Sequence record: NC_028780.1
From: Escherichia phage slur07
Length of the DNA: 64,000 nt
Direction: 5' to 3' (one strand)
Numbering within the stretch: the stretch's first letter is position 1; the number at the start of each line of letters is the position of its first letter. This document shows, in pieces, positions 2,515-50,960 of the stretch. Below the pieces are notes generated by a model. The model saw only the letters and a list, made by a program, of their open reading frames with translations, did no database searches and had not been told where the DNA came from. The position numbers and the translations under genes are program-made.

Positions 2515-3755
<1,241 letters not shown>

Positions 3756-3756
3756 T

Positions 3757-3786
3757 GTTTACTTCCTCCAAGGACTTTGATACTAT
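3757..3786 (+). promoter_or_regulatory. T4-type early promoter
   Basis: GTTTAC 3757-3762, 18-nt spacer, TACTAT 3781-3786. Confidence 0.5.
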
Positions 3787-3813
3787 ACATTCATCAACTA
3801 CTTGGAGGAAATT

Positions 3814-4230
3814 ATGACTCGTATCAATTTAACACTTGTTTCTGAACTGACCGACCAACATCTTATGGCTGAGTATCGTGAATTGCCGCGTGTTTTTGGT
3901 ATAGTTCGTAAACATGCGGCAAATGGTAAGCGGGTTAAAGATTTTAAAATATCTTCCGAGTTTATTTTAGGCTCTGGTCATGTTACGTTCTTTTACGATA
4001 AGTTAGAATTTTTGCGAAAGCGTCAATCAGACATTATAACGGAATGCTTAAAACGTGGGTTTAGTATAAAAGATACTGAAGTTCCTGACATCAGCGATAT
4101 TCCAGCAGAATGGAAAAATGATTATAATCCATGCAAATCAGCTATTAAATTGAGTCAACAACGACTCGATGAAAAAATTTTAATGAAGCCACACTGGTAC
4201 AAGTATTACGGCAAAAATATTTACATTTAA
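3814..4230 (+). CDS. denV: endonuclease V (pyrimidine-dimer DNA glycosylase)
   Basis: 138 aa starting [12 protein letters not shown]...; matches T4 DenV length and sequence as recalled. Confidence 0.9.
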
Positions 4231-4239
4231 AGGAAACAT

Positions 4240-4713
4240 ATGAAAACATATCAAGAATTTATTACTGAAGCAGCTATTAATTCTCAAATTATTGCTGAAT
4301 CTTTTACTGATCTTTTGAAATTTAAAAAAGGTCAAAAAATCACTGCTGTATTGGATGATGGTACAGAAGTTGAGATGGATGTACAGGGATATAATTATGC
4401 AGTAGATGGAAAACTGTATAATAAATCTCATGCTAAATTTGATTCATTTGACGACTTTGTTAATACAGTTGAAGATGAAAAAACTCGTAGATCCATTGCA
4501 ACTGGTGATGCTAAGGTTCTTATGGCACACGGCCATGAACGCATTCGCGCTAAGCAGAATAAAATGGGCGAAGATAATTTCGCATTAGTTGGTTATCAAT
4601 CTGGTAAACAAACTTATGGTTATCAGCGTACTGCTACCATGTATAACAAAAATGGTAAAATCGCTTTCGTGAATAGTAAAGGTTCTGTTCAGTACGTCAA
4701 ATCATTCAAATAA
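4240..4713 (+). CDS. internal protein with capsid-targeting sequence
   Basis: 157 aa, N-terminus MKTYQEFITEAAINSQ (T4 IP-type CTS, ITE cleavage motif). Confidence 0.75.
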   Translation: MKTYQEFITEAAINSQIIAESFTDLLKFKKGQKITAVLDDGTEVEMDVQGYNYAVDGKLYNKSHAKFDSFDDFVNTVEDEKTRRSIATGDAKVLMAHGHERIRAKQNKMGEDNFALVGYQSGKQTYGYQRTATMYNKNGKIAFVNSKGSVQYVKSFK

Positions 4714-4866
4714 GCAAATAAGAAATATGGGAACAAGCTGGACCTCATGATTCTATGAGGGATTCCCGCCAACCTGTAATAAGGTCGAGCCCAAGTGCGG
4801 TAATGGGTAAATACAGAAATGGAAAATTCATGCGCCATGGAATGGCCCAAATTTAGAGAGAATAAA

Positions 4867-5406
4867 ATGAGAACATTTTTAACTGGTCCTTATCTATCCC
4901 TGATGAATGCTTTTACACACCATTCTGATGCTAGAGTAGAAGAAATTTGTAAAAACGATTATATCCCACCATTTGAAGACTTACTCAAGCAGTATTGCAC
5001 ACTTCGATTAGATGGTGGCAGACAATCCGGTAAATCAACTGCTGTGACTAACTTTGCTGCTAATTGGCTGTATGATGGTGGAACAGTTATTGTTCTTTCT
5101 AATACTTCAGCTTACGCTAAAATTTCTGCGGGCCACATTAAAAAAGAATTTTCTCGTTATTCTAGCGATGATATTCGATTCCGCTTATTTACCGATTCTG
5201 TCCGTAGTTTTATCGGTAATAAAGGAAGCAAGTTCAGAGGTTTATCGCTTTCGCGGATTTTGTATATAATCGATGAGCCTGTTAAATCTCCTGATATGGA
5301 TAAAATTTACGATATTCATATTGAAACTGTGCACCACTGTTGCAATAGTAAATGCTGCATTGGTGGTATTACTCGTCCACAGTTTTTCATAATCGGAATA
5401 CAATGA
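4867..5406 (+). CDS. P-loop NTPase, function unknown
   Basis: Walker A GGRQSGKST and Walker B-like IIDEP; ATG 4867 (track ORF starts 4819). Confidence 0.55.
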   Translation: MRTFLTGPYLSLMNAFTHHSDARVEEICKNDYIPPFEDLLKQYCTLRLDGGRQSGKSTAVTNFAANWLYDGGTVIVLSNTSAYAKISAGHIKKEFSRYSSDDIRFRLFTDSVRSFIGNKGSKFRGLSLSRILYIIDEPVKSPDMDKIYDIHIETVHHCCNSKCCIGGITRPQFFIIGIQ

Positions 5407-21900: not shown

Positions 21901-22164
21901 ATGTTTAAAGTATATGGTTATGATAGCAACATTCATAAATGTGTGTATTGCGATAATGCAAAACGTCTTTTGACCGTGAAGAAACAGCCGTTTGAATTTA
22001 TCAACATTATGCCGGAAAAAGGTGTTTTTGATGATGAGAAAATCGCTGAGCTTCTGACTAAACTAGGTCGTGATACTCAAATCGGCTTGACAATGCCCCA
22101 GGTATTTGCTCCCGATGGAAGTCATATTGGTGGATTTGACCAACTGCGAGAATATTTTAAATGA
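21901..22164 (+). CDS. nrdC: thioredoxin/glutaredoxin (T4 NrdC)
   Basis: 87 aa, active site CVYC; matches T4 thioredoxin as recalled. Confidence 0.9.
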   Translation: MFKVYGYDSNIHKCVYCDNAKRLLTVKKQPFEFINIMPEKGVFDDEKIAELLTKLGRDTQIGLTMPQVFAPDGSHIGGFDQLREYFK

Positions 22165-22376
22165 TGCTCGAAGGAACTGACTATATTCATGATTACCGCG
22201 GAAGCGCGGTATATGTAGGTGATGAAGTTGCAGTTTATTATGGGTATGGAACTTTGATGACAGCCAAGGTTATTCAAATTAAAAATAATCGTGCTAAACT
22301 CGAAGTTTATTATTCTAATGGTGAAAAGTCTATTTCTAAGTGGAAATACGGCGATTGTATGGTTAAATTGGGGTAA
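22161..22376 (+). CDS. hypothetical small protein
   Basis: 71-aa ORF, ATGA overlap. Confidence 0.5.
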   Translation: MMLEGTDYIHDYRGSAVYVGDEVAVYYGYGTLMTAKVIQIKNNRAKLEVYYSNGEKSISKWKYGDCMVKLG

Positions 22377-22378
22377 AT

Positions 22379-22549
22379 ATGATTTACGATATTAATGTAT
22401 CACGAGCTCCGTCAATGGTTACTATTCCAGCCGAAGAACTAGATCGTCTTCAGAAAATTGAAGAACTTCTTTGGGAAATTGAATGTGACCTGCCATCAGG
22501 ACTAGAATCCTGGATTGATGATGAAGAACTTAATAAATTGCGAAATTAA
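22379..22549 (+). CDS. hypothetical small protein
   Basis: 56 codons directly after upstream stop. Confidence 0.35.
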   Translation: MIYDINVSRAPSMVTIPAEELDRLQKIEELLWEIECDLPSGLESWIDDEELNKLRN

Positions 22550-22559
22550 TTGGTGAAAA

Positions 22560-22880
22560 ATGACTATTGAAAATAAATTAGATGTTGATGCAGTTCTGAG
22601 CGAAATCATTGAAGACCATGATGCATTTTCGGAAAACTATGATTTCGATTTTTCCGATTATCTTAAACCTGTCGAAATAGAAGACTGGGTGCAAGATGGT
22701 AAATGTCAATATCGTCAGTGTGTTTACTTTAGTCCAAAACATAATGTACATGTGGCTGTAAATGAATCTCGGTCAGGTTCTTATCATTCTGACTGGTATT
22801 ATGCAGTTCCGACTGTTGAACTAGTCGAGCCCCATGAACGTGTAGTAACTCAGACAGTACGAGAATGGATTACGCTATAA
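22560..22880 (+). CDS. hypothetical protein
   Basis: 106-aa ORF. Confidence 0.5.
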   Translation: MTIENKLDVDAVLSEIIEDHDAFSENYDFDFSDYLKPVEIEDWVQDGKCQYRQCVYFSPKHNVHVAVNESRSGSYHSDWYYAVPTVELVEPHERVVTQTVREWITL

Positions 22881-23003
22881 AACCTTGGTGGGCGGCTAGA
22901 TGGGAAACTGTAGAGCCAGAGCCGGAAGAACCGGTTTACACTGATGAAGAAACGGTGTATAATGAACCTACAATAAATGACATAATTGATATGGAGATGG
23001 GAC

Positions 23004-23423
23004 ATGATTACAGTAGATAAGTGGTTTAGAATTAATCGTGCTGATACAGGGCTGTGTAATTACTGGCCGGAACTTAGTGCAGGTAATGTCTTTAAAGTTC
23101 GTGAACTTGCAAAAGAATGTGAAGATGATATAGAGCCTGATACTGGAATTATTGAAATTGAACTTTCTGATGGAAAGATTATTAACATCTACGATAAGCC
23201 AATTACGTATTGGTGCTTGTGGAATACTGAATCAGTAGAAAATGGCGAAATTGAAGAAGTTGTAGAGCGAACTAATCAAGTTGTTCAGAAGCCTAAAGCC
23301 GATTTTCAAGGTGAACGTATTTCATATGCATTAGCTAAATTAGCTGCACAAGAAAATAACGATGGCTATGAAGGAAATTTGATGCAAGCTGCGGCAGAAT
23401 ATATTGAATGGCTTGAAACCTAA
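23004..23423 (+). CDS. hypothetical protein (49-nrdC interval)
   Basis: 139 aa from ATG 23004; track ORF starts at TTG 22986. Confidence 0.45.
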   Translation: MITVDKWFRINRADTGLCNYWPELSAGNVFKVRELAKECEDDIEPDTGIIEIELSDGKIINIYDKPITYWCLWNTESVENGEIEEVVERTNQVVQKPKADFQGERISYALAKLAAQENNDGYEGNLMQAAAEYIEWLET

Positions 23424-23500
23424 ATTTCTTTTTCTGACCAAAAGATTCGGCAATATAAGCGATTGAATCAAATGTTTTACAATACTTGAAAATAATAAAT

Positions 23501-23525
23501 ACCCTTATCTATTTAAGGTAAGGGT
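23501..23525 (+). promoter_or_regulatory. stem-loop sequestering the gene 49 ribosome-binding region
   Basis: ACCCTTA...TAAGGGT inverted repeat, 5 nt before ATG 23531. Confidence 0.5.
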
Positions 23526-23530
23526 TTATT

Positions 23531-24004
23531 ATGTTATTGACTGGCAAATTATACAAAGAAGAAAAACAGAAATTTTATGATGCACAAAACGGTAAATGCT
23601 TAATTTGCCAACGAGAACTAAATCCTGATGTTCAAGCTAATCATCTTGATCATGACCATGAATTAAATGGACCAAAAGCAGGAAAGGTACGTGGATTGCT
23701 TTGTAATCTCTGCAATGCCGCAGAAGGTCAAATGAAACATAAATTTAATCGCTCTGGTTTAAAGGGACAAGGCGTTGATTATCTTGAATGGTTAGAAAAT
23801 TTACTTACTTATTTAAAATCCGATTACACCCAAAATAATATTCACCCTAACTTTGTTGGAGATAAATCAAAGGAATTTTCTCGTTTAGGAAAAGAGGAAA
23901 TGATGGCCGAGATGCTTCAAAGAGGATTTGAATATAATGAATCTGACACCAAAACACAGTTAATAGCTTCATTTAAGAAGCAGCTTAGAAAGAGTTTAAA
24001 ATGA
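23531..24004 (+). CDS. 49: recombination endonuclease VII (Holliday junction resolvase)
   Basis: 157 aa, zinc-binding CLIC...CNLC, histidine motif DHDHE; matches T4 gp49. Confidence 0.9.
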   Translation: MLLTGKLYKEEKQKFYDAQNGKCLICQRELNPDVQANHLDHDHELNGPKAGKVRGLLCNLCNAAEGQMKHKFNRSGLKGQGVDYLEWLENLLTYLKSDYTQNNIHPNFVGDKSKEFSRLGKEEMMAEMLQRGFEYNESDTKTQLIASFKKQLRKSLK

Positions 24005-30326: not shown

Positions 30327-31529
30327 ATGAAAGTATGTATTTTTATGGCTCGAGGTCTTGAAGGTTGTGGTGTAACTAAATTTTCTCTTGAGCAACGTGA
30401 TTGGTTTATTAAGAATGGTCATGAAGTAACTTTGGTTTATGCTAAAGATAAATCATTTACTCGTAATTGCGCGCATGATTATAAATCATTTTCAATTCCG
30501 GTTTTATTGGCAAAAGAATATGATAAAACACTTAAGCTGGTAAATGATTGTGATATTCTAATTATCAATTCAGTTCCTGCTACTTCGGTTGAAGAAGACA
30601 CTATTAATAACTATAAAAAAATTATTGATAACATTAAACCTTCTGTTCGTGTTGTAGTTTATCAACATGACCATTCTTCTCTTTCTTTGCGCCGAAATTT
30701 GGGATTAGAAGAAACTGTTCGTCGAGCTGATGTTATTTTTAGCCATTCTGATAATGGTGATTTTAATAAAGTTCTGATGAAAGAATGGTATCCTGAAACA
30801 GTTTCTCTGTTTGATGATATTGAAGAAGCACCGACAGTATATAACTTTCAGCCTCCTATGGATATTGCGAAGGTTCGGTCAACCTACTGGAAAGATGTTT
30901 CTGAAATTAACATGAATATCAACCGTTGGATTGGTCGTACGACTACATGGAAAGGTTTTTATCAGATGTTTGATTTTCATGAAAAACATCTTAAACCTGC
31001 AGGACTAAGTACTATTATGGAAGGTCTGGAACGTTCTCCAGCGTTCATTCCTATTAAAGAAAAAGGAATTCCATACGAGTATTATCGTCTTCATCAAGTA
31101 GACCAAATTAAAATTGCTCCTAATTTGCCAACGCAAATTCTTGACCGTTATGTAAATAGCGAAATGCTTGAACGTATGAGTAAATCCGGTTTTGGTTATC
31201 AGTTGAGTAAGTTGGATAAAAAATATCTACAACGTTCTTTAGAATATACTCATCTCGAGCTTGGTGCATGTGGAACAATTCCGGTATTTTGGAAATCTAC
31301 TGGCGAAAATTTAAAATTCCGTGTTGATAATACTCCTTTGACCTCGCATGATAGCGGTATCATTTGGTTTGATGAAAATGACATGGAATCAACATTTGAA
31401 CGTATTAAAGAACTGTCATCTGACCGAACTCTTTATGACCGCGAACGCGAAAAAGCTTATGAATTTTTGTATCAGCATCAAGATTCAAGCTTCTGCTTTA
31501 AAGAACAGTTTGACATTATTACAAAATAA
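30327..31529 (+). CDS. a-gt: DNA alpha-glucosyltransferase
   Basis: 400 aa; size and order (between 55 and 47) match T4 alpha-gt. Confidence 0.85.
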   Translation: MKVCIFMARGLEGCGVTKFSLEQRDWFIKNGHEVTLVYAKDKSFTRNCAHDYKSFSIPVLLAKEYDKTLKLVNDCDILIINSVPATSVEEDTINNYKKIIDNIKPSVRVVVYQHDHSSLSLRRNLGLEETVRRADVIFSHSDNGDFNKVLMKEWYPETVSLFDDIEEAPTVYNFQPPMDIAKVRSTYWKDVSEINMNINRWIGRTTTWKGFYQMFDFHEKHLKPAGLSTIMEGLERSPAFIPIKEKGIPYEYYRLHQVDQIKIAPNLPTQILDRYVNSEMLERMSKSGFGYQLSKLDKKYLQRSLEYTHLELGACGTIPVFWKSTGENLKFRVDNTPLTSHDSGIIWFDENDMESTFERIKELSSDRTLYDREREKAYEFLYQHQDSSFCFKEQFDIITK

Positions 31530-33172: not shown

Positions 33173-34857
33173 AGAATTTTAAACTAAATCGAGTTAGGTA
33201 TCAAAATATAATGTCAGTAGGTGGAAATCCTATTGACATTCAATTAGATAAGGTTCAAAAAACTCTTATTACTGGACGAAATGGCGGTGGTAAGTCTACT
33301 ATGCTAGAAGCCATCACATTTGGGCTTTTTGGCAAGCCATTTCGTGATGTAAAGAAAGGTCAATTAATAAACAGCACAAATAAGAAAGAACTTTTAGTTG
33401 AACTGTGGATGGAATATGATGAGAAAAAGTACTATATCAAAAGAGGACAAAAACCGAACGTTTTCGAAATCACCGTTAACGGTACACGTCTTAATGAATC
33501 TGCCAGCAGTAAAGATTTCCAAGCAGAATTTGAACAGCTTATCGGAATGTCATATGCCAGTTTCAAGCAGATTGTTGTCCTTGGTACAGCAGGGTATACC
33601 CCTTTCATGGGTTTGTCGACCCCTGCACGAAGAAAGCTTGTGGAAGACCTGCTTGAGGTAGGAACATTAGCTGAAATGGATAAGCTTAATAAAGCACTAA
33701 TACGTGAATTAAATTCACAAAACCAAGTGCTTGATGTTAAAAAAGATAGTATTATCCAACAAATTAAAATATATAATGATAACGTTGAACGCCAGAAAAA
33801 ATTAACGGGTGACAACCTTACTCGTCTGCAAAATATGTACGATGATTTGGCAAAAGAAGCTAGAACGCTAAAATCGGAAATAGAAGAAGCTAATGAAAGA
33901 TTAGTTAATATTGTTTTGGATGAAGACCCGACTGATGCATTTAATAAAATCGGTCAAGAAGCAGTTTTAATTAAATCAAAAATTGACTCATATAATAAAG
34001 TCATTAATATGTATCACGAAGGTGGATTATGTCCAACCTGTTTGTCGCAATTAAGTTCCGGTGATAAAGTTGTTTCTAAAATTAAAGATAAAGTTTCTGA
34101 ATGCACGCATTCGTTTGAACAGCTTTCAACACATCGTGATAATTTAAAAGTTCTTGTTGATGAATACCGAGATAATATTAAAACCCAACAGTCGTTGGCA
34201 AATGATATTCGCAATAAAAAGCAATCTCTAATCACGACGGTAGATAAAGCTAAAAAAGTTAAAGCGGCTATAGAAAAAGCATCTTCTGAGTTTATTGACC
34301 ATGCTGATGAAATAGCACTGCTTCAAGAAGAACTTGATAAAATTGTTAAGACAAAAACTAATTTAGTAATGGAAAAATACCACCGAGGAATTTTGACTGA
34401 TATGCTCAAAGATTCTGGTATTAAAGGTGCTATTATTAAAAAGTACATTCCATTATTTAATAAGCAGATTAACCATTATCTTAAAATAATGGAAGCGGAT
34501 TATGTGTTTACATTAGATGAAGAATTTAATGAGACAATTAAATCCCGTGGTCGTGAAGATTTTAGTTATGCTTCATTCAGTCAAGGTGAAAAAGCACGAA
34601 TTGATATTGCTCTTTTATTTACTTGGCGTGATATTGCTGAAAAAGTTTCAGGTGTTAAAATAAGTTGTTTATTTCTTGATGAAGTGTATGACGGTGCATT
34701 TGATGCTGAAGGTATTAAAAATGTAGCTAAAATTTTAGATGGTTTGAAGGATACCAACTTCTTCATAATTTCGCATAAAGACCATGACCCACAAGAATAT
34801 GGTCAGCATATTCAGATGGAAAAAGTTGGTAGATTTAGTTTAGCTAAGATTAGCTAA
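33169..34857 (+). CDS. 46: recombination ATPase subunit (Rad50/SbcC-like)
   Basis: 562 aa, GTG start; Walker A GRNGGGKST, central coiled coil with CPTC zinc hook, signature SQGE, Walker B LFLDE. Confidence 0.92.
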   Translation: MKNFKLNRVRYQNIMSVGGNPIDIQLDKVQKTLITGRNGGGKSTMLEAITFGLFGKPFRDVKKGQLINSTNKKELLVELWMEYDEKKYYIKRGQKPNVFEITVNGTRLNESASSKDFQAEFEQLIGMSYASFKQIVVLGTAGYTPFMGLSTPARRKLVEDLLEVGTLAEMDKLNKALIRELNSQNQVLDVKKDSIIQQIKIYNDNVERQKKLTGDNLTRLQNMYDDLAKEARTLKSEIEEANERLVNIVLDEDPTDAFNKIGQEAVLIKSKIDSYNKVINMYHEGGLCPTCLSQLSSGDKVVSKIKDKVSECTHSFEQLSTHRDNLKVLVDEYRDNIKTQQSLANDIRNKKQSLITTVDKAKKVKAAIEKASSEFIDHADEIALLQEELDKIVKTKTNLVMEKYHRGILTDMLKDSGIKGAIIKKYIPLFNKQINHYLKIMEADYVFTLDEEFNETIKSRGREDFSYASFSQGEKARIDIALLFTWRDIAEKVSGVKISCLFLDEVYDGAFDAEGIKNVAKILDGLKDTNFFIISHKDHDPQEYGQHIQMEKVGRFSLAKIS

Positions 34858-35566
34858 GTTTATATTTACAGTTATCATTATGCCACCTTGATAAATTTCC
34901 GAAAGTGGTAACTTTACCGCAATGGACGCAAGTACCAGTCTTTTCAGTTTTCTTGCGTCCATTTGGATTTTTCTTGCAGAAATTTCTATGCGCTGCGATA
35001 ACGCATTTCTTGCCTATCATTCCGCAGAATTCGCAGGATGTTTCTTCAAGAACGATTGCTTTAAGCCCGTTTGAGATATTATTTCTGTGTTCTTTAGACA
35101 TTGGTGGTCTAACTTTAGGATTGGGGTGATTTGGGCAGTTATCAAAATGCCAACGATTCATATTCCCGCTTAATCCAGACTTACCGCAATGAGGACAAGT
35201 TAGTCTTGCTTTATTAGCTACTGCATCAGACATTTTCTTTCGTGTCTCCTGGGAGAATTCTTTATTCTTTTCTATTTCCCAGAGTTTACGACGAATCCAA
35301 CCGAAAGTTTTATTGTTGCGTTTAGCGTATTTTGTGGAAACTGTCATCATGTTAGCAGCATAGACTAATTTTGGTTCAGAAGGATAAATTTTTACTAAAA
35401 GTTGATGAGCTACATAGTGCTCTTCTGGTGTTAAATCTACTAAGTTTGAGGCATCATCGCTGCCATTTAAACAGCGTGGTATAATGTGATGAGATTCAGT
35501 ATAGCAATCAAGTTTTCGAGATTTAGCATTAGAGATTAACTTTTCATAAATTAGTTTATAATTCAT
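34850..35566 (-). CDS. free-standing HNH homing endonuclease with three C-terminal zinc-finger repeats
   Basis: HNH motif ESHHIIPR...NLVDLTPEEHYVAH; repeats CPHCG..WHFDNC, CEFCG..HRNFC, CVHCG..WHNDNC; AAGGA RBS. Confidence 0.8.
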   Translation of the reverse strand: MNYKLIYEKLISNAKSRKLDCYTESHHIIPRCLNGSDDASNLVDLTPEEHYVAHQLLVKIYPSEPKLVYAANMMTVSTKYAKRNNKTFGWIRRKLWEIEKNKEFSQETRKKMSDAVANKARLTCPHCGKSGLSGNMNRWHFDNCPNHPNPKVRPPMSKEHRNNISNGLKAIVLEETSCEFCGMIGKKCVIAAHRNFCKKNPNGRKKTEKTGTCVHCGKVTTFGNLSRWHNDNCKYKLS

Positions 35567-42735: not shown

Positions 42736-42987
42736 ATGGAAACTTTAGTAGCAGGTTCAATTTTTATGGTTTTAGTTTCAGGCGTGTTGGCTATTATTAT
42801 ATACATGCTTCCATGGTTCATTGCCTTGATGCGTGGGTCAAAATCAACAGTAGGAATCTTTTTCACGTCTTTACTGTTTAACTGGTCAATTATTGGTTGG
42901 TTTATTACATTTATTTGGTCAATTGCGGGTGAAACCAAAAAGTCTGCACAGCCAAATCAGGTAATTATCATCAGAGAGAAGGAATGA
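42736..42987 (+). CDS. imm: superinfection-immunity membrane protein (Imm-like)
   Basis: 83 aa, two TM helices, location between 43 and 42 as in T4. Confidence 0.6.
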   Translation: METLVAGSIFMVLVSGVLAIIIYMLPWFIALMRGSKSTVGIFFTSLLFNWSIIGWFITFIWSIAGETKKSAQPNQVIIIREKE

Positions 42988-43133
42988 AAAGCAAAATTAT
43001 AGCAGCATTGCTTTTAATCTTGATGGTTATAATAAGTATATACTATAGTGTAACGGTTCCTCTTATGATTCCAACTATTATTTTAGGTTGGGGTTTATTA
43101 CTGTTACAAGTTAAATATGAATGTATCAATTGA
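42984..43133 (+). CDS. small membrane protein
   Basis: 49 codons, hydrophobic, ATGA overlap. Confidence 0.4.
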   Translation: MKSKIIAALLLILMVIISIYYSVTVPLMIPTIILGWGLLLLQVKYECIN

Positions 43134-43140
43134 GGTTTAA

Positions 43141-43881
43141 ATGATTAGTGACTCTATGACAGTTGAAGAAATCCGTCTTCATTTGGGGCTTGCATTAAAG
43201 GAAAAAGATTTCGTAGTTGATAAAACTGGCGTTAAAACTATTGAAATTATTGGCGCATCATTTGTAGCAGATGAACCGTTTATTTTTGGCGCTCTTAATG
43301 ATGAATACATTCAGCGTGAACTTGAATGGTATAAATCTAAGAGCTTGTTCGTTAAAGATATTCCGGGTGAAACACCGAAGATTTGGCAACAAGTAGCATC
43401 TTCTAAAGGTGAAATTAACTCGAATTATGGTTGGGCTATCTGGTCAGAAGATAACTATGCCCAGTATGATATGTGTTTAGCTGAACTTGGTCAAAATCCT
43501 GATTCTCGGCGCGGTATCATGATTTATACTCGTCCATCTATGCAGTTTGACTACAATAAAGATGGTATGTCAGATTTCATGTGTACGAATACAGTACAAT
43601 ACCTGATTCGTGATAAGAAAGTCAATGCAGTAGTAAGCATGCGCTCAAATGACGTGGTCTTCGGATTCCGTAATGATTATGCATGGCAAAAATACGTATT
43701 AGATAAATTAGTATCTGATTTGAATGCAGGCGATTCAACTCGTCAATATAAAGCAGGTTTTATTATATGGAATGTTGGAAGTCTTCATGTATATTCTCGT
43801 CATTTTTATTTGGTTGATCATTGGTGGAATACTGGCGAAACTCATATTGTGAAAAAAGACTATAAAGGTGAGTGGAAATGA
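43141..43881 (+). CDS. 42: dCMP hydroxymethylase
   Basis: 246 aa; thymidylate-synthase-like; size and position match T4 gp42. Confidence 0.93.
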   Translation: MISDSMTVEEIRLHLGLALKEKDFVVDKTGVKTIEIIGASFVADEPFIFGALNDEYIQRELEWYKSKSLFVKDIPGETPKIWQQVASSKGEINSNYGWAIWSEDNYAQYDMCLAELGQNPDSRRGIMIYTRPSMQFDYNKDGMSDFMCTNTVQYLIRDKKVNAVVSMRSNDVVFGFRNDYAWQKYVLDKLVSDLNAGDSTRQYKAGFIIWNVGSLHVYSRHFYLVDHWWNTGETHIVKKDYKGEWK

Positions 43882-44720
43882 TTCAATTCGTAATTCCAAG
43901 TTATCAGCGTGTAGGGGCAGTTTCTGCCCTTGATATGTTTCCGACTGATTATGAACCGCATATTGTAGTGCGTGAACACGAAGAAAAAGCTTATTATGAT
44001 GCCTATGGGTCTAGAGCTAAAATTATAACTATTCCTGATGATGTAAACGGAATTGCCGGTACTCGTAAAGCAATTACTGATATGTATGCAGGTCAACGAA
44101 TCTGGATGATTGACGATGATACTACTATTCGTATGAGTTCAATGCGAAAAAGAGATGACCGTCGTTGTGTAGATAAAGTCAATCAATTAACCCGTGAACA
44201 GTTCTATGAATTGATTCAATACGTCGAAGATGCCATGGATTGTGGGTATTATCATGGTCATGCTCGTCTACCTATTTTTAAAATTACTTCATCTTGGGGT
44301 AATTATCGTGAAAATTCATATGGATTCACGAATACATGGTATGACCTTGGAAAACTTACAACAGAACAAATTGGGTATGGAAAAATTGATTTATGCGAAG
44401 ATATGTATGCATTTCTCAATTTAATTAATCAAGGTTATCCGCATTTGGCCTTGTTCAAATATCTGGTTGTATCTGGAAAAGCACAAGCTCCTGGCGGATG
44501 TAGTTCAATTCGTAGTAATTCTAAACATAATAGAGCGCTTGAACAAATCAATAGAGAGTTTCCAGAGCAAGCTCGTTGGAAAACTTCTAATATTGAAAAA
44601 CGAAAATCGTTGGGTGAAGAAGACGAGCCATTAAAGGTTCTTCGCATGTGTGTTTCTCGTAAAGAAAAATCAGAAGCATTTCATAAGTTTAATGCTATTC
44701 ATCCAATAGCAGTTGATTAA
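43878..44720 (+). CDS. GT-A type glycosyltransferase in the T4 beta-gt position
   Basis: DxD motif IWMIDDDTTI; 280 aa; not the T4 beta-glucosyltransferase sequence as recalled. Confidence 0.65.
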   Translation: MIQFVIPSYQRVGAVSALDMFPTDYEPHIVVREHEEKAYYDAYGSRAKIITIPDDVNGIAGTRKAITDMYAGQRIWMIDDDTTIRMSSMRKRDDRRCVDKVNQLTREQFYELIQYVEDAMDCGYYHGHARLPIFKITSSWGNYRENSYGFTNTWYDLGKLTTEQIGYGKIDLCEDMYAFLNLINQGYPHLALFKYLVVSGKAQAPGGCSSIRSNSKHNRALEQINREFPEQARWKTSNIEKRKSLGEEDEPLKVLRMCVSRKEKSEAFHKFNAIHPIAVD

Positions 44721-44797
44721 TGCCTAAATTTATTGTGTTATAATTACTCTATCTTTAACCAGTGAGGAAAATATAATGATGCCTATGGAAAAAATGA

Positions 44798-45979
44798 ATG
44801 TCTATTGCAGATTTAAAATCCCGTTTGATTAAAGCTTCCACTTCTAAAATGACTGCTGAACTGACTACATCTAAATTCTTTAATGAAAAGGATGTAATCC
44901 GTACAAAAATCCCAATGCTTAATATTGCTATTTCTGGTGCGATTGATGGCGGTATGCAGTCTGGTTTAACTATTTTCGCAGGGCCTTCTAAACACTTTAA
45001 ATCAAATATGTCTTTGACTATGGTTGCGGCATATTTGAACAAATATCCTGACGCGGTTTGTCTATTCTATGATAGCGAATTTGGTATTACTCCAGCTTAT
45101 TTGCGATCCATGGGAGTTGACCCGGAACGAGTAATTCATACGCCAATTCAGTCAGTTGAACAGCTGAAAATTGATATGGTGAACCAGCTTGAAGCTATTG
45201 AGCGTGGTGAAAAGGTTATTGTATTCATCGACTCAATCGGTAATATGGCTTCTAAGAAAGAAACTGAAGATGCCTTGAATGAAAAATCTGTGGCAGATAT
45301 GACTCGTGCTAAATCACTGAAGTCATTATTCCGTATTGTTACTCCTTATTTTAGCATTAAAAATATTCCGTGCGTTGCGGTTAACCATACAATTGAAACC
45401 ATTGAAATGTTTAGTAAAACCGTGATGACAGGTGGTACAGGCGTAATGTATTCGGCTGATACTGTATTCATTATCGGTAAGCGTCAGATTAAAGATGGTT
45501 CTGATCTTCAGGGGTATCAATTTGTTCTAAATGTAGAAAAATCTCGTACCGTTAAAGAAAAAAGTAAATTCTTTATTGATGTTAAATTTGACGGTGGTAT
45601 CGATCCTTATTCTGGATTGTTAGATATGGCTCTAGAATTAGGATTTGTAGTAAAACCTAAAAATGGCTGGTATGCTCGTGAATTTCTTGACGAAGAAACC
45701 GGCGAGATGATTCGCGAAGAAAAATCTTGGCGTGCAAAAGATACCAACTGCACTACATTCTGGGGTCCTTTATTTAAGCATCAACCATTCCGAGATGCTA
45801 TTAAACGTGCTTATCAGTTAGGTGCTATTGATAGTAATGAAATTGTTGAAGCTGAAGTTGATGAATTGATTAACTCAAAGGTTGAAAAATTTAAATCTCC
45901 AGAAAGTAAAAGTAAATCAGCAGCTGATTTAGAAACTGACCTCGAACAGTTAAGTGATATGGAAGAATTTAATGAATAA
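44798..45979 (+). CDS. uvsX: RecA-like recombinase UvsX
   Basis: 393 aa; matches T4 UvsX throughout. Confidence 0.95.
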   Translation: MSIADLKSRLIKASTSKMTAELTTSKFFNEKDVIRTKIPMLNIAISGAIDGGMQSGLTIFAGPSKHFKSNMSLTMVAAYLNKYPDAVCLFYDSEFGITPAYLRSMGVDPERVIHTPIQSVEQLKIDMVNQLEAIERGEKVIVFIDSIGNMASKKETEDALNEKSVADMTRAKSLKSLFRIVTPYFSIKNIPCVAVNHTIETIEMFSKTVMTGGTGVMYSADTVFIIGKRQIKDGSDLQGYQFVLNVEKSRTVKEKSKFFIDVKFDGGIDPYSGLLDMALELGFVVKPKNGWYAREFLDEETGEMIREEKSWRAKDTNCTTFWGPLFKHQPFRDAIKRAYQLGAIDSNEIVEAEVDELINSKVEKFKSPESKSKSAADLETDLEQLSDMEEFNE

Positions 45980-49144: not shown

Positions 49145-50173
49145 ATGTCATCAATACCTTGGATTGATAATGAGTTTGCATACCGTGCATTAGCTCATTT
49201 ACCTAAATTCACACAAGTAAATAATAGTTCAACTTTTAAATTACGGTTTAGATGTCCTGTTTGTGGAGATTCAAAAACCGACCAGAATAAAGCTCGTGGA
49301 TGGTATTATGGTGATAATAATGAAGGAAATATTCATTGTTATAACTGTAACTATCATGCACCAATCGGAATATATTTAAAGGAGTTTGAACCTGATTTAT
49401 ATCGTGAGTATATCTTTGAAATAAGAAAAGAAAAAGGTAAAAGTCGTCCAGTAGAAAAACCTAAAGAACTTCCTAAACAACCTGAGAAGAAAATAATTAA
49501 ATCTCTTCCGTCATGTGTTAGATTAGATAAACTGGCGGAAGACCATCCAATTATAAAATATGTAAAAGCTCGTTGTATTCCAAAGGATAAATGGAAATAT
49601 CTTTGGTTTACAACCGAATGGCCTAAATTAGTTAATAGTATAGCACCCGGAACATATAAAAAGGAAATACCTGAGCCTCGTCTTGTTATTCCAATTTATA
49701 ATGCTAATGGAAAAGCTGAGTCTTTTCAAGGACGTGCATTAAAGAAAGATGCTCCTCAAAAATATATAACCATCAAAGCTTATCCTGAGGCAACAAAAAT
49801 CTATGGAGTCGAACGAGTTAAAGATGGTGATGTATATGTTCTAGAAGGACCTATAGATTCACTTTTTATTGAAAATGGTATAGCTATTACGGGTGGTCAA
49901 TTAGACCTAGAAGTTGTTCCATTTAAAGATAGACGTGTGTGGGTTTTAGATAATGAACCTCGTCATCCTGACACTATTAAGCGAATGACTAAATTAGTTG
50001 ATGCAGGAGAAAGGGTTATGTTTTGGGATAAATCTCCCTGGAAATCAAAAGATGTTAATGATATGATTAGAAAGGAAGGTGCAACCCCTGAACAAATTAT
50101 GGAATATATGAAAAATAATATTGCCCAGGGGTTGATGGCTAAAATGCGGTTATCTAAATATGCTAAGATTTAA
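49145..50173 (+). CDS. 61: DNA primase
   Basis: 342 aa; zinc ribbon CPVCGDS...CYNCNYH; matches T4 gp61. Confidence 0.93.
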   Translation: MSSIPWIDNEFAYRALAHLPKFTQVNNSSTFKLRFRCPVCGDSKTDQNKARGWYYGDNNEGNIHCYNCNYHAPIGIYLKEFEPDLYREYIFEIRKEKGKSRPVEKPKELPKQPEKKIIKSLPSCVRLDKLAEDHPIIKYVKARCIPKDKWKYLWFTTEWPKLVNSIAPGTYKKEIPEPRLVIPIYNANGKAESFQGRALKKDAPQKYITIKAYPEATKIYGVERVKDGDVYVLEGPIDSLFIENGIAITGGQLDLEVVPFKDRRVWVLDNEPRHPDTIKRMTKLVDAGERVMFWDKSPWKSKDVNDMIRKEGATPEQIMEYMKNNIAQGLMAKMRLSKYAKI

Positions 50174-50370
50174 ATTAACCCAACTAAAGCAAATGCTAAA
50201 TCTACGAATGTATCAAGAGTAACTACTGGAATATTAATACCATGTGCAATTGCAACAGGTGATAAAATAAAGTTCCAGAGTAAAATTCCTACCATAGCAG
50301 AAATAGTAAAAGCTATACGTTTCTTATTACCTTTTATGGCATTAACAAGTGCCATTAATTTTTGTACCAT
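50170..50370 (-). CDS. antisense small membrane protein
   Basis: 66 aa, two hydrophobic helices; AGGAGG SD 4 nt before minus-strand ATG; stop overlaps gene 61 stop. Confidence 0.45.
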   Translation of the reverse strand: MVQKLMALVNAIKGNKKRIAFTISAMVGILLWNFILSPVAIAHGINIPVVTLDTFVDLAFALVGLI

Positions 50371-50383
50371 ATGTCCTCCTTAT

Positions 50384-50407
50384 TGCTTTATATATTTATT
50401 GTATAAT
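50384..50407 (+). promoter_or_regulatory. MotA-box middle promoter
   Basis: TGCTTTA 50384-50390, 11-nt spacer, TATAAT 50402-50407. Confidence 0.5.
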
Positions 50408-50441
50408 TAATCTACTAACCCATGAATTGAAAGGAAAAATA

Positions 50442-50960
50442 ATGGCTCACTTTAATGAATGTGCTCATTTGATCGAAGGTGTTGATAAAGCAAATCGTGC
50501 ATATGCTGAGTATATTATGCACAGTATTGACCCATTGCAGGTTATGCTTGACATGCAGCGGCATTTACAGATTCGTTTGGCTAATGATAAACCAGAAACA
50601 AATCGTCATCCTGATTCACTTGAAACTGCAGGAGAAGTTCTTGCTTGGCTGCGAAACCAAGACGATTATATCGCAGATGAAACTCGCGAGCTATATACTT
50701 CTCTTGGTGGTATGAGTAATGGTGAAAAAGAAGCTTCTGCCGTATGGAAACCTTGGAAGAAACGTTATTCTGAAATGCAATCCAAGAAAATTCAAGACTT
50801 ATCTCCTGAAGATCAACTTGAAATTAAATTTGAACTGATTGATCAATTTCACTTTTTCATGAATAAATTCATTGCTCTTGGAATGTCAGCTGAAGAAATA
50901 TTTAAACTTTATTATCTGAAAAATGCTGAAAACTTCGCTCGTCAAGACAGAGGCTATTAA
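50442..50960 (+). CDS. 56: dCTPase/dUTPase (dCTP pyrophosphatase)
   Basis: 172 aa starting MAHFNECAHLIEG; size and position match T4 gp56. Confidence 0.8.
   Translation: MAHFNECAHLIEGVDKANRAYAEYIMHSIDPLQVMLDMQRHLQIRLANDKPETNRHPDSLETAGEVLAWLRNQDDYIADETRELYTSLGGMSNGEKEASAVWKPWKKRYSEMQSKKIQDLSPEDQLEIKFELIDQFHFFMNKFIALGMSAEEIFKLYYLKNAENFARQDRGY

Follow-up and report, generated by a model that had tools for sequence, protein, structure and literature searches.

The gene at positions 43878-44720 of the DNA stretch studied here (64,000 nucleotides of Escherichia phage slur07, sequence record NC_028780.1; referred to below as the window) encodes, with a probability of about 0.93, the T2/T6-type beta-glucosyl-HMC-alpha-glucosyltransferase (ba-gt), which makes gentiobiosyl-hmC with the product of the a-gt gene as its acceptor. 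The identity of the gene, its synteny, family, and fold class, as well as the presence of an alpha-gt gene and the absence of a beta-gt gene, were determined in the present analysis, and the reaction and its product are taken from the literature. An earlier sequence-only reading had noted a gene for a 280-amino-acid protein with the motif IWMIDDDTTI between gene 42 and uvsX, and had proposed that a beta-alpha-gt of the T2/T6 type replaces beta-gt at this place. Both the open reading frame and the motif, which comprises residues 75-84 of the protein, were recovered. The proposed replacement is supported by matches to PF20691 and phrog_842, by the presence of an alpha-gt gene in the window, and by the comparison with the T2/T6 enzymes that this reading had suggested, which gave 278 of 280 residues identical to T2 and three substitutions relative to T6.

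The protein matches PF20691 (TAGT, 'TET-associated glycosyltransferase') with 38.9 bits against a gathering cutoff of 27.5, and the match spans residues 3-207, corresponding to positions 2-205 of the 205 in the profile. It also matches phrog_842 ('beta-glucosyl-HMC-alpha-glucosyltransferase') with an E value of 6e-89; neither glucosyltransferase is represented by a model in NCBIfam. No residue differs from the orthologues of the Durham phage vB_Eco_Solly (Solly) and of the BASEL phage Bas39 (FriedrichMiescher), the latter annotated as 'hmC beta-alpha-glucosyltransferase ba-gt'. Two residues differ from the T2 orthologue (R11H and P251S in T2), three from the T6 orthologue of record MH550421, which in addition has a stop at codon 10, and seven from that of the Durham phage EL. 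Many of the DNA matches of the gene are annotated as beta-glucosyl-HMC-alpha-glucosyltransferase or beta-alpha-glucosyltransferase. Orthologues of about 65% identity are found in T4-like phages of Klebsiella, Enterobacter, and Salmonella, and in some of these relatives (CC31, S16, and Merlin) a T4-like b-gt adjoins TAGT. The T2 and T6 genes are as long as the window gene, lie in the slot bounded by gene 42 and uvsX, overlap the former by ATGA in the same way, and share the a-gt partner and the DDD motif. The a-gt alleles differ, however, as the window carries the '91% to T4' allele of the RB phages and Solly, whereas T6 carries a 99% T4-like allele (Thomas et al. table, PMC6024577). Bas39 and Solly have the same gene order as the window and an a-gt that differs by one residue, and their surrounding genomes are about 98%, not fully, identical to it.

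Both deposited T6 genomes contain a potentially disabling difference from the ba-gt consensus, although T6 is the reference for approximately 72% gentiobiosyl-hmC. In MH550421 (ba-gt at 4138-4980, minus strand) a CAG to TAG change is present at codon 10, and the gene is annotated from Met20 as a 261-amino-acid 'ggt', while in AP018814 (4135-4974, minus strand) one Asp codon of the DDD motif is missing (IWMIDDTTI, 279 amino acids). Mutations specific to the sequenced stocks, or else sequencing errors, account for these differences.

The locus comprises the following features.

43141..43881, plus strand: gene 42, dCMP hydroxymethylase, which makes hm-dCMP; 237 of 245 residues identical to T4 gp42 (97%), Pfam Thymidylat_synt.
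43878..43881, plus strand: ATGA overlap of the ba-gt start codon with the gene 42 stop codon (TGA), seen in the sequence; the annotations of Bas39, Solly, EL, and T2 contain an identical 4-nt overlap.
43878..44720, plus strand: ba-gt (also g-gt, ggt, or TAGT), assigned as beta-glucosyl-HMC-alpha-glucosyltransferase of 280 amino acids on the basis of its open reading frame, PF20691, phrog_842, and near-identity to T2.
44112..44120, plus strand: codons GAC GAT GAT for D79-D80-D81, a DxD-type motif at the end of a central beta-strand, according to sequence, alignment, and model.
44798..45979, plus strand: uvsX, the downstream flank of the variable slot; PF21134 (T4 UvsX C-terminal domain) and RecA domain.

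The ba-gt gene thus lies in a Tequatrovirus backbone with gene 42 on one side and uvsX on the other, the position that characterizes ba-gt/TAGT, and the genes in its surroundings are 91-97% identical to those of T4. Its open reading frame extends on the plus strand from the ATG at 43878 to the TAA at 44718-44720 (843 nt, 280 amino acids). The mechanical list of open reading frames contains a longer version of 282 amino acids that starts two codons upstream, with a GTG at 43872. This start was rejected, since the checked orthologues start at the ATG and the spacing of a Shine-Dalgarno-like GGTGAG, 6 nt upstream of the ATG, fits the latter; the 843-nt form is annotated in all four feature tables that were checked (Bas39, T2, Solly, and EL). 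The ATGA overlap suggests that translation of ba-gt may be coupled to that of gene 42. A scan of positions 42900-45000 revealed no excess of promoter-like matches (11 versus 8.8 in shuffled sequence) or terminator-like matches (2 versus 1.2). A hairpin-like match at 43912-43932 is situated within the ba-gt coding region, and no meaning is attached to it.

The fold of the protein is GT-A according to its predicted structure, with a conserved Asp-rich (DxD-type) motif. This assignment rests on a predicted model because a PDB sequence search with the protein retrieved only a chance match (best E = 1.6) and no relative of known structure. The homologue search yielded only 11 clusters, and the modeling alignment was consequently shallow, with nine sequences, and parts of the model are of low confidence: mean pLDDT is 72.5 and pTM 0.73, with values of 80-94 for the first 80 residues; residues 131-150, 203-211, and 244-251 are modeled weakly. 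In the model, a strand formed by residues 74-79 directly precedes the DDD motif, and D79, D80, and D81 are invariant in the nine-sequence alignment, down to 32% identity. By comparison with the GT-A/GT2 family, the motif most likely holds a divalent metal together with the diphosphate of the UDP-sugar, and the mechanism would be inverting, giving a beta product from UDP-alpha-glucose like GT2 enzymes. Cellular GT2-family GT-A enzymes (TarP, 6H1J; SpsA, 1H7L; and the cellulose synthase BcsA) share 6-16% sequence identity with the protein. Unlike these enzymes, ba-gt has a sugar on DNA as its acceptor, and nothing in them clearly corresponds to its last 80 residues.

Besides the dCMP hydroxymethylase gene, the window contains two further genes of the glucosylated hmC pathway.

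30327..31529, plus strand: a-gt, DNA alpha-glucosyltransferase, which makes alpha-glucosyl-hmC, the acceptor of ba-gt; PF11440 with 786 bits, 91% identical to T4 a-gt, 399 of 400 residues identical to Solly.
50442..50960, plus strand: gene 56, dCTPase/dCDPase, which prevents the incorporation of unmodified C into phage DNA; 170 of 172 residues shared with the protein annotated as dCTPase in Bas39.

Together, genes 42 and 56 cover the steps of the pathway that lead to hmC, and a first-step glucosyltransferase is encoded together with ba-gt, as is characteristic of this gene. In the proposed pathway, gp42 would produce hydroxymethyl-dCMP and gp56 would remove dCTP, so that the phage DNA polymerase would incorporate hmC. 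The alpha-gt, whose gene lies 12 kb upstream of ba-gt, would then add an alpha-linked glucose to hmC in duplex DNA, and the 280-amino-acid GT-A enzyme would use host UDP-glucose to attach a second glucose, beta-1,6 to the first, yielding gentiobiosyl-hmC. The DNA of this phage would accordingly be expected to contain naked hmC, gentiobiosyl-hmC, and little alpha-glucosyl-hmC; beta-glucosyl-hmC would be absent, as there is no beta-gt. The quantities in this pattern are predicted by analogy with characterized phages. The a-gt product of the window has 35 differences from T4 a-gt and nearly matches the alleles of Solly and Bas39.

The chemistry of the T2/T6-type enzyme has been described. T2 and T6 lack b-gt, and a second transferase places a beta-1,6 glucose on alpha-glucosyl-hmC to give gentiobiosyl-hmC, which makes up about 5% of hmC in T2 versus about 72% in T6, while about 25% stays unglucosylated (PMC6024577; PMC13160076; PMC13216743). 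T6 lacking ba-gt has DNA with only alpha-glucosyl-hmC, which Brig1 can now degrade and the glucosyl hydrolase BapA can use as a substrate (PMC11078745; PMC13160076). HPLC/MS of ten Durham Tequatrovirus phages, in which TAGT is described as 'at the position syntenic with' T4 beta-GT, detected hmdC, alpha-glucosyl-hmdC, and alpha-gentiobiosyl-hmdC, and no beta-glucosyl form; Solly and six others contained about one-third hmdC and two-thirds gentiobiosyl-hmdC with a low background of alpha-glucosyl-hmdC, and EL, BGP, and Geo displayed an intermediate 1:2:2 pattern (PMC13390438). With an identical ba-gt and an a-gt that is one residue off in Solly, the nucleoside analysis of phage DNA proposed earlier has therefore in effect been done, on Solly, and we infer by analogy that the modification pattern of the window phage is the same.

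The one alternative that is still alive is quantitative, namely that ba-gt contributes little, as in T2, and that the DNA contains mainly alpha-glucosyl-hmC with a few percent gentiobiosyl-hmC. The T2 enzyme is only two residues off (R11H and P251S), yet T2 has about 5% gentiobiosyl-hmC versus about 72% in T6 (PMC6024577; PMC13160076), so the extent of modification is not readable from the gene alone; moreover, the ba-gt proteins of EL, BGP, and Geo, with seven differing amino acids, go with the intermediate pattern (PMC13390438). Nevertheless, a small contribution is unlikely, as both transferases of the window match those of Solly (no difference in ba-gt and one in a-gt), a phage with about two-thirds gentiobiosyl-hmdC (PMC13390438), and phages of the Solly group share with the window both the upstream sequence and the ATGA junction with gene 42. 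The identity of both transferases to those of Solly thus favors a T6-like pattern.

It is conceivable, if still rather doubtful, that the gentiobiosylated fraction of hmC is set jointly by the a-gt allele and by small allele differences in ba-gt (R11H/P251S in T2, seven in EL). The EL a-gt allele is 33 residues off that of the window, and the glucosyl/gentiobiosyl ratio of EL differs in published LC-MS data (PMC13390438). If this idea were true, the allele pair of the window would represent one defined setting of the modification level, with relevance for the glycosylase defenses Brig1 and BapA/Brig3, and it would be a refinement of known biology rather than a new system.

A different donor or acceptor for ba-gt, such as another sugar, or action directly on hmC or beta-glucosyl-hmC, is highly improbable. 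The family is not uniform, as TAGT homologues also occur beside beta-GT or without any other GT (PMC13216743), and CC31, S16, and Merlin have both b-gt and TAGT, but the identity of these relatives does not exceed about 65%. On the other hand, chemical analysis of phages with identical proteins revealed only hmC, alpha-glucosyl-hmC, and alpha-gentiobiosyl-hmC (PMC13390438), and the protein is 99% identical to the T2 orthologue, while gentiobiosyl-forming activity has been assigned to the ba-gt of T2/T6 (PMC13160076; PMC6024577; PMC13216743). The notion that the gene is a diverged homologue of T4 beta-gt making beta-glucosyl-hmC is supported only by its position, which is syntenic with T4 b-gt, and is refuted by the lack of sequence similarity (best E = 2.2) and by a GT-A model here versus GT-B in T4 beta-GT (PMC13216743); it is also countered by the failure to detect beta-glucosyl-hmdC in phages carrying ba-gt (PMC13390438).

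The sequence-only reading had correctly described T4 beta-gt as a protein of 351 amino acids starting with MKIAIINMG, and its statement that the window protein does not resemble this enzyme holds, as BLASTP gave chance fragments only. The protein has no Pfam match to PF09198 (T4-type beta-glucosyltransferase), and in the predicted model the two-Rossmann-domain fold of GT-B does not appear, the fold reported for T4 beta-GT (PMC13216743). T4 b-gt (PF09198; PDB 1JG7) resembles ba-gt in its syntenic slot downstream of gene 42, in its UDP-glucose donor, and in forming a beta linkage on modified phage DNA, but its sequence is unrelated, its fold is GT-B versus GT-A, and its acceptor is hmC itself, in contrast to the alpha-linked glucose used by ba-gt. 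A tblastn search of the whole 64-kb window with T4 b-gt gave nothing better than E = 4, and a search of all 64 kb for remnants of T4 b-gt or segA gave nothing better than E = 1.4; the window is therefore without a beta-gt gene or remnant.

The boundaries of the slot were derived from a four-way DNA alignment. On the left, homology to T4 breaks off within the final few codons of gene 42 (about position 43865), and the gene 42 proteins end in KGEW in the window versus VGKY in T4. On the right, homology is back at approximately codon 5 of uvsX, at about position 44810. In T4 the slot comprises roughly 1.9 kb with b-gt and segA, a homing endonuclease gene, whereas in the window, T2, and T6 it consists solely of the 843-nt gene plus a spacer of 77 nt. 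The segA gene of T4 encodes a GIY-YIG homing endonuclease (T4 record 3571-4236). A homing endonuclease beside the swapped cassette suggests a possible route for the origin or spread of the T4 arrangement.

Two other loci of the window were also compared with related genomes. The first carries a single open reading frame on the strand opposite to all its neighbors.

34850-35566, minus strand: 238-amino-acid open reading frame just after gene 46, with an 8-nt overlap with its end.

Its product shares 44% identity over 126 amino acids with MobB, an HNH homing endonuclease of T4 (E value of 2e-26 in tblastn), and has a sub-threshold Pfam HNH match, and it is probably a mobile homing-endonuclease insertion; T4, Bas39, Solly, and EL have no counterpart at the same place. 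Secondly, no dam-like methyltransferase gene is present between the primase gene (gene 61) and gene 56 (50173-50442), while the corresponding region of EL (21909-23606) contains one along with a second, unannotated open reading frame. The missing dam-like gene groups the window with the Solly-type Durham phages, which matches the distinction made in PMC13390438.

The ba-gt arrangement is common. The gene is matched at the DNA level by 473 phage records with at least 90% nucleotide identity over its full length, and about 471 records encode the protein with at least 90% amino acid identity, versus about 29 for a T4-type b-gt at 90% or more. The surrounding 24 kb is found at 90% or more in about 515 records, and the closest database relatives over these 24 kb are AV120/AV119 and vB_Eco_NR1 (about 98%). 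In the NAR 2026 survey, alpha-GT and beta-GT occur together in only 6 of 753 GT-encoding phage genomes, and alpha-GT with TAGT is common (PMC13216743). With about 470 ba-gt versus about 29 b-gt genomes, T4 is therefore the exception and the window represents the normal state of the genus, as has already been stated for T4 in the same paper (PMC13216743). The ba-gt gene is accordingly a textbook gene in its usual place in T4-like coliphages, and earlier publications have described the gene and its product, assigned the fold class, and reported that it is more prevalent than the T4 arrangement.

For annotation, the window phage would be expected to have T6-type DNA, with hmC, gentiobiosyl-hmC, trace alpha-glucosyl-hmC, and no beta-glucosyl-hmC. 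The modification pattern predicts the fate of a phage against modification-dependent defenses: GmrSD/BrxU-type enzymes still cut gentiobiosyl-type DNA (PMC13390438; PMC13216743), gentiobiosyl-hmC DNA is not degraded by Brig1 in vitro (PMC11078745), and BapA is unable to take glucose off gentiobiosyl-hmC (PMC13160076). Moreover, it affects the behavior of the DNA with restriction enzymes and in sequencing.
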